Numbered from the stretch's first letter, positions 2,929 through 40,743 are shown. The stretch is 45,799 nt of DNA from a bacterium (GCA_023267635.1 JAHFMX010000001.1:149165-194963), one strand, 5' to 3'. Notes: a model not told the origin generated them from the sequence alone. A program made the numbers and translations.

Positions 2929-5900
2929 ATGGATCCAATAGTCACACAAAAACTTGATGAGTTGATTGCCAACAAGAAAACGGTAACAGTGATTGCTGAT
3001 GAGTTACAGGTATCTCGACAAACGGTCTATAAGTGGCTTAGTAAGTACAAGAGAGATAATACTGAATTTGCTAAAGCCTTGAGAGAAAGAAGTACTCTTT
3101 CTGCTCATAATAAAATTCCGTCCCAGATAGAAAGTGTTGTTATTTCTATTGCTGAAAAAAACCCAGAAGACAGTGTTTCAGCTTTAACAGCCAAGCTTAA
3201 GAATAACTATAAAATTGTTCTTAACTCCGCAACTGTCTTTAGAATTCTTAAACGTAATAATATCCGTTACCAAGGAGTTTCTATCCCCAAAGAACAATTA
3301 GTAGAGATTTCTCAAGAAATTGTTCCCGTTGTAGAAACTTCTGTGCCCACACCACAAGTAGCTTCATTCACTCCGCCTGTTCAAACGATACCGCTACCCG
3401 TTCTCTTTTCTGAACCTTTTCTAGTACATAAAGGTAAAGATGTGAATACTCGTATGTTTGAGGGTTTGTATAAGTTAACGGCGACTGCACTCGCTGCGGT
3501 TACTTGTGTCTTAACTGTTACGTATGGAGCTACTCGTTTTGAATCAGGTGCTATTGCTTTAAAACAAACTATTCCCTATAACGAACTCAGCTCTCCTGCT
3601 TTTACATCCTACGCAAATATCCTACCAATCAGAGAGGTGGTTGAGTTAATTGGAATAGAAAACCGCACCGCACCAGCTACTCCTACGTTTACTTTTATTG
3701 CAGATTCTCCTCGTTTTAAGAAATCAATTAGTATTTTTTCACCTAGAACTTTTTCTCTTTCAAAACTTGGCACTGCAACAAATTCTTTTGTAAAAAATGG
3801 CCCACGCCTTAGTGTGCTTTCATCCGTTCCTCTCACTAACTATACAAACTATCTATTCGGTGGAGACGTTGCTCGAGCTGAAAATCAAGCTTCGAGCACC
3901 TTTTCTCTTGCTTCGAACTTCTCGTTGCTTGATCGTTTTTCACTCGCTCTTTTTTGCGGAGTTACATCGTTTTCTGGTGAAGTTAAACAGGAAAGATGTA
4001 ATTACAGCAAACTTGCTTCATTAACAGAAACATCAACAGAAGTCGCTCCTATTCCAGGCGATAGTGTTGTGGTTGATGGTGGTGCAGAAGATCAACAGGG
4101 CAGTGCTGAAGATGCAACCCCATCTCTCCCTCCCTCCTCCCCAATCTACCTCACCCGCTACATCACTCAATACATCGGTGTCCCAGGTCCAGCAGGTAAA
4201 GATGGAGCAGATGGTAAAGACGGAGTAAACGGTATCACGTCATCTGCACCAGAAGGCTATGGTTCCTACCTCATTCCTTCGTACTCTTCTCCAGCAACAT
4301 CAATTGGAGTTTCTACCATCTCATACCTTCGTCAAACAACCATTGAACTTCCTGTCATTACAGGAGGTACTGCTACTACGCTTTCTCTCATTACTCCAAC
4401 GGTACAAGGTGGAGTATTCAGTGGACACTCACTCTTTAATGACTCTGCATCATTCACTGGTTCAGTAACCATCAACAACCTTACCGCTACGTCTTCTACT
4501 GTCACTAACCTTACCGCTACTAACGCCACCACCACCAACGCTTACATTGATTTCCTCACCGTAGGGTCTTCTACTGCAGGAAGTCTTACACTAAGTGGCA
4601 CCCTTAACGTAGCAGGAACAACAACACTCGCCACCACTACCGCATCTTCTTTCACCACAACGTACGCAACCACGACAAACCTCTTTACTCAGAATCTTTC
4701 TGTGGGTAATGCTTCAACAACAGGGAATCAATCAATTGATGGACAGTTCAACGTATCAGGAACATCAACCCTTGGAGCAAAGGTCTTCCTTAACGGAAGT
4801 GTGGTAGTTGGTACTTCAAGTGACGAACTGTTCACGGTAAACGCACTTGTTAACTCAAACATTACTCCATCTCAGAACATTACCTATGACCTCGGTTCTC
4901 CATCCTTCTACTGGAGAAACCTCTACGCTAACAACATCAACGTAAACAGTATCTCTGCTGCCTCAACCACCATCTCTGGAACATCTAACAATGACTTCAT
5001 TGTGAACTCAGACAATGGTTCCTCTGATGCTGAAGATGCTTCCTTTGTGTTCTTCCGTGGACTCTCTACACCAAATGCATTGTTACGTTGGAACTCTGCA
5101 ACCAAGCGTATTGAATCCAACATGAGTTTCAAAGTACAAAACGAAACACCAACCACAGGAACAACAACACTCACCGTACAAGCAGGCGCAGGACAGGGAT
5201 CAACGAATCTCTTTGAACTCATTAATTACGCTGGAACCAAACTTTCCGCATTTACCTCACAAGGATGGCTAGGTATTGGAACTACCACACCCTCTACATC
5301 TCTTCACCTTACAACTAACGATGGACTCATCATTCCAGCAGGTACAACAGCACAGCGTCCAAGCACAACTCTCCCAGGTGTTATCAGATACAACACTACT
5401 AACACTGGCTTTGAAGGATTCAATGGTTCTACCTGGGGATCTCTTGGTGGAGTAAGTGATGCAGATCAAAATACCTACATCTCAGCTGAAAACTCAGCTG
5501 GATCAAACAATGATGAACTTAAGTTCTATACCGCAGGCACACTACGAGGCATCTTCTCCTCAACAGGGAACTTTGGGATTGGAACGAGTACGCCAGGGTC
5601 TATGCTTACTGTTGTCGGAACAACATCACTTGCAACGACAACGATTACGGGGACGCTTACGGTGAATGGTAATACCAACATCACTCAAGGAGGAACCCTT
5701 ACCGTTGGAGACAAAGTGATTGCTCCAGGAGAAATTGGTGCAGGAACATCTAGTCCATCAGGAAAAATTGCTATACAAAGTACATTAGCTAACCAGGTTG
5801 CATTTTTGATATACGGTACATCAACTCAGATAGCTCCACTTATTGATGTTTTTGATTACCCAGGATCAAACCAAAATATATTTCGTTTAAGTGCAACAGG

Positions 5901-11060: not shown

Positions 11061-11135
11061 TCCGCGGTAGCTCAGCGGTAGAGCAGTTCCCTGTTAAGGA
11101 ATTGGTCGTAGGTTCGATCCCTACCCGCGGAGCCA
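11061..11135 (+). tRNA. tRNA-Asn (GTT)
   Basis: Full cloverleaf: TCCGCGG/CCGCGGA acceptor stem, GCTC/GAGC D stem, loop CTGTTAA, GTAGG-TTCGATC-CCTAC T arm, G73 plus encoded CCA. Confidence 0.97.
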
Positions 11136-11362
11136 AGCGCTGAATCCAAAAGACACCCATTAGGGTGTCTTTTGCGCTTGGCTCCGCGGAGTACCTGACC
11201 TGTGTCAGGTACGTGTAGGGATCGAACCGCGGGCCGCAGTCTTCGAAGAGAAGACGTAGGTTTCGAGCATAGCAATGCGAGAGGCGATCCCTACCCATTT
11301 TGCTTTCAGTCTTTTGAAATTAGCAGTCCCGTGTAATCACGGGAAAGATCCCTACCCACGGA
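11125..11362 (+). repeat. tRNA trailer with antisense and repeated tRNA 3' fragments interleaved with small hairpins
   Basis: 11174-89 = revcomp of 11125-40; 11215-28 = revcomp of 11111-24; GATCCCTACCC recurs at 11286-96 and 11347-57. Confidence 0.8.
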
Positions 11363-38570: not shown

Positions 38571-39668
38571 ATGTCACTCTCAATCGGTATTGTAGGTCTT
38601 CCAAATGTTGGTAAATCAACACTCTTTAATGCGCTCACGAAAAAATCTGTACCAGCGGATAACTATCCTTTTTGTACTATCGATCCGTCAGTTGGTATTG
38701 TTCCTGTTCCTGATGAACGACTTGAGGCGCTTTCAAAAATTTCTGGTTCAAAGAAAATAATTCCAGCGATTGTGGAGTTCGTAGATATTGCAGGTCTTGT
38801 TAAGGGGGCCTCTGAAGGGCTTGGACTCGGTAATCAATTCCTCACACATATTCGTGAGACTGACGCTATTGCAGAAGTGGTTCGTATTTATGAGAACGCA
38901 GATCTTATTCACGTGGAAGGAACGGTGGACCCAATGCGTGATATTGAAATCATCAACATGGAACTTATCTTGGCCGACATGCAGACGGTTGATAAGCGAG
39001 CTCAAACAATTGGACGAGATGTAAAACGTGGAGATAAGGACGCAGTTAAACTGCAAGGTGTTATCGAACGCCTACAAAAGTTGTTCGCTGAAGAAAAACT
39101 TGCGAATAGATTGGAACTTGATGAAGAAGAACACAAACTTGTGCGTGATCTACACCTCATTACTATGAAGCCGTTTCTCTACGTGTTGAATAAGCAATCA
39201 GGTGGAAAAAATTTGGATGAAATGAAAGACCCACGATTTGATGCACTTGTTGCATATTTTAAAGAAAACAAATTCCACTATGTTGTCGTGGACGCAAAGA
39301 TTGAAGATGAGCTCAAAGACTTCGAAGGAACAGAGCGTGATGAGATGCGTTCTGAACTTGGTGCGCACGATAGCGGAGTAGATCATCTTATTAAAGCAGG
39401 CTACGACCTTCTTGGACTTGAGACATATCTTACGACAGGGGAAATGGAAACACGTGCATGGACTATCAAGAAAGGTTCTACTGCGCCTCGTGCAGCAGCA
39501 GCTATTCACTCTGACTTTGAAACAAAGTTTATTCGCGCTGAAGTTGTTGCCTGTGATGATTTAGTACAAGCTGGAAGCTTTGCAGAAGCAAAAGCGAAAG
39601 GAGTACTACGAACAGAAGGGAAGGAATATGTCGTCCAAGATGGCGACGTCATAGAATTCAAAATCTAA
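38571..39668 (+). CDS. ychF: Redox-regulated ATPase YchF
   Basis: [38 protein letters not shown] and TGS domain. Confidence 0.97.
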
Positions 39669-39783
39669 AAAACATTCCATCTTCGTTGTTGTGACTTTAT
39701 TTTTGTCAGTCACCGTAGATTAACTACGTTTTCTTCCAAAAACTTGTCACGCCTAGAATATGAAACATTTTTTAGATTTTGAA
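39657..39783 (+). repeat. Nested fold-back element at the ychF 3' end (family member C)
   Basis: 16-bp perfect outer arms (39657-72/39768-83) including the stop codon; GTGAC/GTCAC middle arms; CGTAG/CTACG inner hairpin. Confidence 0.8.
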
Positions 39784-39799
39784 AGCTTAAGATATAAAT

Positions 39800-39832
39800 A
39801 AATAAGCCAGCCAATCCGAAGATTGACTGGCT
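39800..39832 (-). terminator. Intrinsic terminator with C(UUCG)G loop
   Basis: AGCCAGTCAATC-TTCG-GATTGGCTGGCT-TATTT; the G-U wobble works only on the minus strand. Confidence 0.85.
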
Positions 39833-40013
39833 ATGGAACTACCTTACCCTGTTTCATCCCTACGGAATCATCAGGAGAAGAATCCACTTGTTTGTAATCT
39901 GACTGAAATCAAGATTACGGGACGCGTGATATTGGGAAGTCTTTTTCTGGATGGCGCCAGTTAAGACCTTGTCACACCCAACATCTGCTTCTCTACATGA
40001 ACAGGTATTCCAT
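39800..40013 (-). ncRNA. Stand-alone structured RNA with a type III hammerhead-ribozyme-like core
   Basis: Consensus promoter; 5' ATGGAA pairs with TTCCAT just before a C(UUCG)G terminator; CTGATGA (39874-68), stem II, GAAAC (39855-51), GTA triplet (39996-94), stem I GAGAAG/CTTCTC; only tiny ORFs (6-7 codons) seen. Confidence 0.7.
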
Positions 40014-40018
40014 AATCT

Positions 40019-40047
40019 ATTATAACAGATTATTAAGTTAATGTCAA
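40019..40047 (-). promoter_or_regulatory. Perfect-consensus sigma70 promoter driving the hammerhead-like RNA
   Basis: TTGACA (40047-42), 17 nt, TATAAT (40024-19), with extended TG. Confidence 0.9.
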
Positions 40048-40100
40048 GTAAATAAGATTATTAGATACTTACATCTTAAATTAACTGATATACTTTTTCT

Positions 40101-40550
40101 ATGTATATTCTTTATGCGCTCCTCGGTGCAGTTATGGCTTCTATCGGAACTATTTTTGCAAAAGTTGGATTGAAAGGCGTCGATGCAAATCTTTTAACAG
40201 CGCTTCGGGGAATTGTTATGGCGGTGATCGTAACGCTTGCCGCACTTTCGTTTGGGAAATTTACTCAAGCAGGACTTTCATCGCTCACGGCTAAACATTG
40301 GCTTTTTATTATTCTCTCTGGGCTCGCAGGAGCATTATCATGGATATTCTTTTATCATGCACTATCTGCTGGACCGACCGTAACGGTAACAGTGCTTGAT
40401 AAGTTGTCCCTCGTTTTCACTGCAATTCTCACAATGATTGTATTGGCAGAAGGGATAACACTGCAAGCGGGGGTGGGGCTTGTGTTGGTTGTTGTGGGAA
40501 CAATTCTCGTTGCAATTCCTTGGAATAGCTTGATTTCATTCGTTAAATAG
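40101..40550 (+). CDS. EamA/DMT-family small transporter
   Basis: Five TM segments; FAKVGLKGVD...LSGLAGALSWIFFYHAL...LDKLS pattern. Confidence 0.88.
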   Translation: MYILYALLGAVMASIGTIFAKVGLKGVDANLLTALRGIVMAVIVTLAALSFGKFTQAGLSSLTAKHWLFIILSGLAGALSWIFFYHALSAGPTVTVTVLDKLSLVFTAILTMIVLAEGITLQAGVGLVLVVVGTILVAIPWNSLISFVK

Positions 40551-40552
40551 AC

Positions 40553-40582
40553 TTGACAAATAGCACTAAATAGTGCTATAAT
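40553..40582 (+). promoter_or_regulatory. Sigma70 promoter with a 9-2-9 palindromic operator between -35 and -10
   Basis: TTGACA (40553-58), 18 nt, TATAAT (40577-82); ATAGCACTA-AA-TAGTGCTAT at 40560-79. Confidence 0.75.
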
Positions 40583-40587
40583 ATATA

Positions 40588-40658
40588 TCCAACTATTGAT
40601 CGCAGTTGCCATACTGTTGTTGGTTCAGGGAGCGTCGCGTGACGCTCCCTATTTTTTT
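40588..40658 (+). ncRNA. Candidate ~70-nt small RNA or attenuated leader
   Basis: Between the promoter and a strong terminator AGGGAGCGTC-GCGT-GACGCTCCCT-A-T7; internal stems CCAAC/GTTGG and CAGT/ACTG. Confidence 0.5.
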
Positions 40659-40743
40659 GCCTATGTGCGTCTGTGCTTAACTTTCCTATACAACCTATTT
40701 TTACTGATACTCTTAGTATAGAGGCACAACAAAGGAGATCACC

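Follow-up and report, generated by a model that had tools for sequence, protein, structure and literature searches.

What the RNA made from a small, strongly promoted transcription unit in a Patescibacteria chromosome might be, and why such a unit should stand alone between two protein genes, are the questions raised by the locus described here. It lies in a 45.8-kb stretch of DNA (45,799 nt; GCA_023267635.1 JAHFMX010000001.1:149165-194963), the whole of which is termed the window, and the RNA gene is read on the minus strand. A first-pass annotation had described it as a stand-alone RNA gene folding into a type III hammerhead ribozyme with a large insert in stem I. This description is supported by two orthologs (L018 and L189), by the score of 65.8 bits that one of them reaches on a covariance model built from phage sequences only (model R1), and by covariation among the phage sequences themselves. 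The explanation that we consider probable is a strain-variable, chromosomal, stand-alone type III hammerhead gene belonging to the phage-borne UUCC/GGAU subclass, the assignment to the subclass being made because the L018 ortholog matches R1.

The promoter, the terminator, the hammerhead elements and the insert hairpins of the first-pass annotation were all recovered at the same minus-strand coordinates. The parts of the gene, in the order of the transcript, are as follows.

40019-40047, minus strand: sigma-70 promoter, 12/12 consensus positions, predicted start at ~40013
39995-40013, minus strand: 5′ leader, forming the 5′ strand of an extended helix III (16.19 to 16.1)
39994, minus strand: A17 of the GUA triplet (39996-39994), with the predicted scissile bond at 39994/39993 (sequence and descriptor match)
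39988-39993, minus strand: stem I, 5′ strand GAGAAG, pairing with 39880-39875
39881-39987, minus strand: 107-nt insert in place of the 4-nt loop I (folding)
39875-39880, minus strand: stem I, 3′ strand CUUCUC (sequence)
39868-39874, minus strand: catalytic core strand C3-U4-G5-A6-U7-G8-A9 (CUGAUGA; sequence)
39856-39867, minus strand: stem II, UUCC-GUAG-GGAU, with U10.1·U11.1, three Watson-Crick pairs and loop GUAG
39833-39855, minus strand: G12-A13-A14, then the 3′ strand of helix III (A15.1 to U15.20), abutting the terminator
39794-39832, minus strand: intrinsic terminator, a 12-bp hairpin (39832-39805) with apex UCUUCGGA (UUCG-type), then a U-rich tail

The promoter consists of a −35 TTGACA (40047-40042), a 17-nt spacer ending in TGT, which provides the TG of an extended −10, and a −10 TATAAT (40024-40019). 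Between the predicted start (~40013) and the terminator lies a body of 181 nt whose ends pair, AUGGAAUACC at 40013 with GGUAGUUCCAU, the last base of which is 39833. No open reading frame (ORF) of at least 20 amino acids occurs on the RNA strand within this body. A 43-amino-acid ATG ORF runs on the plus strand, antisense to the ribozyme body (39833-39964); it is without support and probably spurious. The fold is more stable than that of shuffled sequences, z being −4.7 for the unit with its terminator and −3.1 when the body is folded without it.

The core nucleotides are complete (C3 U4 G5 A6 N7 G8 A9; G12 A13 A14), and the two orthologs differ from the window RNA only at the free position N7. 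GAAAC is found at 39855-39851, its GAA being 39855-39853. The N-U-H triplet directly 5′ of stem I is GUA, as in L018, L189 and most phage members, and the A15.1-U16.1 pair is present (U39995 with A39852). The G10.1-C11.1 pair that closes stem II is absent, this position being U·U in the window RNA. Helix III comprises ~15 pairs, compared with 3-6 in phage copies.

The topology was searched with a permissive type III descriptor that accepted any 10.1/11.1 pair, required at least three further pairs in stem II, at least three in helix III and at least five in a stem I adjoining both H17 and C3, and tolerated up to 130 nt inserted into stem I. Over the two strands of the window together, a single match was obtained, coinciding with the hammerhead of the first reading, with a stem I of 6 bp, a stem II of 3 bp and three contiguous helix III pairs plus the extension. 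Three of 300 dinucleotide-preserving shuffled windows also held a match of some kind, and the topology by itself is only about a 1%-per-window event.

The locus was followed by synteny through 80 ychF loci of GTDB species representatives, and the RNA gene was found in L018 alone by nhmmer, blastn, regular expression and R1. L018 is a Paceibacterota metagenome-assembled genome (MAG) whose YchF is 86% identical, and its RNA gene occupies the spacer between ychF and the transporter gene eamA in the same orientation as in the window. The promoter there is TTGACA-17-TATAGT, likewise with TGT before the −10, and the body of ~70 nt reads AGGUGCUCUUGUA/GAGAUGU-GUGU-ACAUCUC-CUGACGA-UUCC-GAAA-GGAU-GAAAC-AGGACUGCUGCACC. 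To judge from these elements it is a textbook compact type III hammerhead, carrying loop I (GUGU) and loop II (GAAA) of the family. The second ortholog, L189, which occupies the same locus in a relative of L018, was obtained in a metagenome scan with a lineage-specific pattern and has a helix III U·G changed to C-G; the scan otherwise returned the unrelated L188 and no second insert-bearing copy. The terminator apex is common to the window, L018 and L189.

Window and L018 align in four blocks, namely the promoter, UGUAGAGA, UCUCCUGAYGAUUCCGNANGGAUGAAACAGG and the terminator apex. In stem I one pair is compensated, being A-U in the window and U-A in L018. The sequences of the outer helix III are entirely unlike in the two genes, yet the transcript ends pair in both. 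The shared blocks identify the window RNA gene as an ortholog of the L018 gene as far as alignment can tell, and together with the end pairing that persists despite sequence change they indicate that the layout of promoter, whole-transcript ribozyme and terminator is conserved between lineages whose intergenic DNA is otherwise unalignable. The search for Patescibacteria homologs foreseen in the first-pass annotation has given two genes that keep the core and the GUA triplet; the covariation that it looked for is seen in the phage subclass.

This subclass was delineated by scanning IMG/VR for the signature CTGAYGATTCC-N3-8-GGATGAAAC, which was present in 107 viral contigs (L081-L187), where by our own rough estimate about one would be expected by chance. 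The subclass core is CUGAYGA-UUCC-NNNN-GGAU-GAAAC. GUA is the commonest cleavage triplet among the phage copies, and U10.1·U11.1 is fixed in all copies retrieved with the UUCC/GGAU signature. Type III topology, with a perfectly paired stem I flanked directly by U-H and C3, was found in 93 of the 109 matches analysed; the remaining 16 (12 distinct sequences) are type I permutations as read by eye. Circular permutation of a single core is a hallmark of hammerheads.

An alignment of 42 distinct 55-nt phage type III copies was paired in 98.9% of its cells, and both sides change in nine of its 15 pairs. The covariation score was 0.655, versus 0.20 for shuffles and at most 0.11 when the partners were slid. 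Pairing of stem I was required for selection into this alignment and pairing of helix III was not; helix III covaries as well, and at one of its pairs 22 sequences have U-A and 16 have C-G. Covariation of stems I and III in the phage subclass is strong. Model R1, derived from these 42 phage sequences only, matches L018 over its full length (65.8 bits, E 8e-16) and finds nothing besides L018 in 624 kb of Patescibacteria loci.

The element is also carried by 71 cultured Pseudomonas phage genomes, e.g. KC294142.1 at 238-284, and the 40 Pseudomonas phage records listed carry no RNA annotation at this position. Most of the phage copies listed follow closely upon a hairpin and precede an ATG by a few tens of bases, and their helix III is short, at 3-6 bp; this arrangement would suit the processing of an mRNA. 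Gene-flanking hammerheads have been reported from prophages, natural U10.1·U11.1 hammerheads have been described, and U·U supports cleavage better than every other 10.1/11.1 mismatch (Perreault et al. 2011, PMC3088659). The U·U at 10.1/11.1 of the window RNA, entered as a caveat in the first-pass annotation, is indeed present, but as the norm of the phage subclass, with natural examples elsewhere, it is no defect.

In one of the viral contigs a Twister-P5 ribozyme (L134:463-521, 51.5 bits, above gathering) is located ~400 nt downstream of the hammerhead. Self-cleaving ribozymes are known to cluster, and this case fits.

A number of observations weigh against a working hammerhead of this subclass in the window, and these are brought together from here on. 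The first concerns family models. At gathering thresholds an Rfam scan of the window returned tRNA-Asn (11061-11135) alone. In a permissive scan the top match at the locus was Hammerhead_3 (RF00008, clan CL00010) with 17.7 bits and E 0.5, the gathering threshold being 48.5 bits, and L018 scored 13.5 bits, also sub-gathering, so that by Rfam's criterion the window RNA is not a member. The core and stem II of both are nevertheless recognised by this model. On R1 the window scored 23.8 bits (E 4e-4) by way of a local end omitting stem I, since a 107-nt insertion is more than the model can bridge. The Rfam alignment of the window copy similarly finds the core and stem II and selects a nearer GUC, without stem I. 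This alternative triplet (39903-39901), chosen by Rfam and R1 alike, has no adjoining stem I and a mismatch in helix III, and was discarded as a local-end artefact.

Since the Rfam score is sub-gathering, the case rests on the other evidence given above. It must be noted that a typical phage member is aligned by Hammerhead_3 end to end with correct helices at only 26.5 bits (E 7e-4), and that none of 14 phage loci passes gathering. A sub-gathering Rfam score and a missing G10.1-C11.1 pair are traits of the whole phage subclass, and the missing pair is not disqualifying. In the comparison with Rfam proposed at first reading, the hammerhead score is below gathering, and no 6S, signal recognition particle (SRP), riboswitch or aptamer family matches the locus at E up to 10, nor does any other family match it better.

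The second set of adverse points concerns the insert and the loops. The insert is made up of hairpin A (39984-39929), a linker with CGUCCC (39924-39919) and hairpin B (39918-39894), and both hairpins are present in all folds computed. It is absent from L018, L189 and all 93 phage type III copies examined, and a search of 189 loci and the window for homologs of it gave none. An origin as a decayed partial duplicate of the hammerhead was considered, but the insert's top-scoring local alignment with the L018 hammerhead was not significant (p ~0.056 by shuffling), and this origin is kept as no more than an idea. In phages, loop I and the U·R pair that closes it hardly vary (U-GNGU-R), and this motif is gone in the window. 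Loop II is GUAG in the window, where the final loop base is A in 42/42 phage copies (family NAAA). Both family loops occur in L018, and no obvious replacement pseudoknot was seen in the window RNA. The usual contact between loop I and loop II has probably been lost, because both presumed partners are changed.

The predicted folds point the same way. When constrained to the hammerhead, the window RNA folds at −51.1 kcal/mol, versus a minimum free energy (MFE) of −56.1 kcal/mol. Its nearest-neighbour ensemble assigns stem I a probability of ~0.002 and stem II ~0.01, and the three core-proximal pairs of helix III in hammerhead register ~0.7. For L018 the constrained fold is within 0.4 kcal/mol of the MFE (−20.7 vs −21.1 kcal/mol), and in the one phage member tested the hammerhead fold is the MFE, at −11.8 kcal/mol. 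The main competitor of the active fold is a helix between CGUCCC of the insert and GGGAUG, which comprises the 3′ strand of stem II and G12. An inactive fold had been anticipated at first reading, in the form of a CCUGUU/AACAGG pairing; that register accounts for ~2% of the ensemble, and it is the insert-stem II helix instead that disfavours the active fold. Nearest-neighbour energies omit the tertiary structure of the hammerhead, and for this reason the modelled energies are taken to indicate a plausible competitor rather than inactivity.

Further points of this kind are the A·G mismatch at 16.4/15.4 and the absence of any signal from a 3-kb region around the gene in three metatranscriptomes of the same study, which are uninformative on expression. 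Finally, the closest relative, L001, lacks the RNA gene, its eamA following 35 nt after ychF (spacer 5096-5130), and the gene is dispensable in view of this absence. The spacer measures 432 nt in the window (39669-40100). In L006 it likewise holds no RNA gene. On a second contig of the DNA run X4 the segment 39670-40101 is replaced by 159 unrelated bases, and a contig of run X9 diverges at 39793. Over 27 related genomes the content of the ychF–eamA spacer varies widely; it is a hot spot for small cassettes.

Near-identical copies in DNA runs X4 and X5 have three substitutions in the 181-nt body, at U15.7, in the loop of hairpin B and at the first base, with none in the core or stems I and II; these variants are too few to test the structure. 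The RNA gene is a discrete and dispensable cassette in a variable spacer, conserved where present and often absent. To us the pattern is that of an accessory element, probably of phage derivation. The first-pass annotation had seen no phage context, which is correct for the window, a piece of chromosome, but it does not hold for the ribozyme family, which is overwhelmingly phage-borne, nor does it reflect the strain-variability of the gene.

Beside the cassette, directly after the ychF stop codon, a ~120-nt element (39669-39793) is enclosed in a 16-nt inverted repeat, TTCAAAATCTAAAAAA / TTTTTTAGATTTTGAA, the left arm of which is formed by the 3′ end of ychF itself. In L007, L013 and L021, too, ychF is followed by similar sequence, and the X9 contig has the element without the hammerhead cassette. 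The element probably represents a ychF terminator hairpin that has expanded.

Much of what has just been listed would also be expected if the window copy were a crippled relic, i.e. an L018-type gene in which the insert and the change in loop II abolished useful cleavage and left a neutral remnant or a non-cutting small RNA. We regard this as unlikely, although it accommodates the replaced loop I, the departure of GUAG from an otherwise invariant final A, an active fold that is 5 kcal/mol less stable than the MFE structure, in which the insert pairs with stem II, the A·G mismatch, an insert without homologs among the loci searched, and a gene absent in L001 and replaced in the second X4 contig. 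Decay of this sort is opposed by a perfect promoter and an intact terminator, by the completeness of the core nucleotides and all three stems, by a compensatory change that preserves stem I pairing, and by X4/X5 variants whose few substitutions spare the core and stems I and II. Moreover, minimal hammerheads without loop-loop contacts retain cleavage in cis at a lower rate.

Alternatively, the two mutually exclusive folds, some 5 kcal/mol apart, might belong to a switch, with the insert as sensor, CGUCCC/GGGAUG as the OFF state, and binding of a ligand, protein or RNA freeing stem II as the ON state. The 6-bp competitor helix is supplied precisely by the insert, which is well structured, and in transcription-order folding stem I belongs to the MFE structure when 140 nt have been made, and it loses to the competitor after stem II has been synthesised. 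We nonetheless find a switch quite improbable: there are no insert homologs and hence no covariation or conserved pocket, no Rfam aptamer matches at E up to 10, the energies on which the two states rest leave out the tertiary structure, and the compact ortholog manages without such a domain. Its specific form as a natural conditional hammerhead, in which the insert would prevent stem II from folding as long as no signal, cellular or phage-derived, is bound, appears to us very improbable. If true, it would be the first natural allosteric hammerhead, of which to our knowledge none has been described, and the first ribozyme gene of autonomous function in Patescibacteria.

That a non-ribozyme small RNA (6S-like, SRP-like, or kink-turn/C-D-like) merely resembles a hammerhead by chance, as its ~180 nt with superficially 6S-like paired ends, the sub-threshold Rfam hammerhead scores and the ~1% descriptor rate in shuffled windows might suggest, is effectively refuted by an L018 ortholog of ~70 nt that is nothing but hammerhead and scores 65.8 bits on the phage-only R1, by the phage covariation, and by the lack of any 6S, SRP or other-family match at E up to 10. 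Two individual candidates were dismissed on structural grounds as well. For 6S RNA, the fold is multi-branch and hammerhead-like, without the central bubble architecture of 6S, the likeness being confined to length, a strong promoter and terminator of its own and paired ends. A kink-turn/box C/D reading of UGAUGA...UGA fails, since the first pair of the C-stem, next to the tandem G·A pairs, would have to be A·C.

Returning to the phage-derived hammerhead gene, the core, the three-helix topology and U10.1·U11.1 are held in common with phage and prophage hammerheads (PMC3088659), and the UUCC/GGAU stem II is identical to that in the 107 viral contigs and 71 Pseudomonas phage genomes. This resemblance suggests that the window RNA descends from bacteriophage hammerheads and works like them. 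Transcription would begin from the consensus promoter at ~40013 and end at the hairpin 39832-39805. The resulting RNA would be little more than a ribozyme, with helix III formed by both transcript ends, stems I and II closed and the core intact. Cleavage would be expected after A39994 (GUA/G), yielding a 20-nt 5′-triphosphate leader that ends in a 2′,3′-cyclic phosphate and a 5′-OH body of ~160 nt plus terminator. The two products would probably stay annealed as a nicked RNA, because a helix III of ~15 pairs joins them where phage copies have 3-6, and religation may be possible.

In the window lineage the 107-nt insert appears to have replaced the conserved loop I, while loop II changed and an insert helix came to compete with stem II. 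The window copy would probably be slower than the compact ortholog, or conditional relative to it, because both loops are changed and the competitor helix is present. As to its biological role, the window RNA is most likely a phage-derived accessory non-coding RNA. One may also speculate on local effects: since eamA follows ychF by 35 nt in L001, the two are perhaps co-transcribed, and on purely inferential grounds a strong convergent promoter inserted between them could interfere with read-through.

Bacterial and phage hammerheads are known, and the roles proposed for them lie in the processing of longer transcripts. The window ribozyme is unlike the phage copies in having its own promoter and terminator, no downstream gene, a ~15-pair helix III running end to end and a 107-nt insert. 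We know of no established function for a self-cleaving RNA without a cargo gene. A parallel to the insert is the discontinuous hammerhead in the 3′ untranslated regions of mammalian Clec2 mRNAs, which Martick and co-workers are said to have described in 2008: it reportedly has a functional core, with stem I strands far apart, separated by inserts of hundreds of bases, and regulates the host mRNA. A long sequence between the stem I strands is shared with the window RNA; the one is part of a eukaryotic mRNA and the other is a stand-alone bacterial gene. In engineered hammerhead aptazymes and in the glmS ribozyme, an appended or integrated sensor domain makes self-cleavage conditional. The window insert can sequester stem II, and switching by it would be hypothetical.

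No relevant literature was found on hammerheads in Patescibacteria, the Candidate Phyla Radiation or LUZ24. What is new is a hammerhead in Patescibacteria, a hammerhead that constitutes a transcription unit by itself and whose helix III runs from end to end, and a large structured stem I insert able to sequester stem II. The retention of promoter, ribozyme and terminator in two diverged Patescibacteria lineages, combined with absence from the nearest relative, points to an autonomous accessory role. The window RNA and its L018 counterpart constitute a natural experiment, in that one gene exists both in a form that has a 107-nt insert able to sequester stem II and in a form that lacks it. The phage hammerheads form a large subclass that is sub-gathering in Rfam, and, with no RNA feature in the 40 records listed, it has been missed in annotation for this reason.

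The genomic setting of the gene is ordinary. The source DNA is a Patescibacteria chromosome of Paceibacteria/Nomurabacteria type, the closest ychF (98% identity) being that of a Candidatus Nomurabacteria MAG. The RNA gene is situated between ychF (38571-39668, plus strand) and a small EamA-family transporter gene (40101-40550, plus strand), antiparallel to both, and the genes nearby encode common chromosomal functions: a penicillin-binding protein transpeptidase, a methyltransferase, a DsbA-like protein and alanyl-tRNA synthetase.

Two minor observations were made elsewhere in the window. A weak R1 match just downstream of tRNA-Asn (11298-11348, minus strand; 16.7 bits, E 0.04) has CUGCUAA in place of the CUGANGA core and an unpaired helix III, and was set aside as a chance hit. 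Just beyond the transporter gene, a second tiny stand-alone RNA unit (40553-40660, plus strand) combines a TTGACA-18-TATAAT promoter of perfect consensus with a strong terminator (40627-40650). Its RNA, approximately AUCCAAC-N8-GCAGUUGCC-N8-GUUGGUU plus terminator, has no Rfam match, and the CCAAC...GCAGUUGCC...GUUGG hairpin recurs with promoter and terminator in nine other Patescibacteria loci (L001, L002, L004, L006, L017, L018, L025, L026 and L027).

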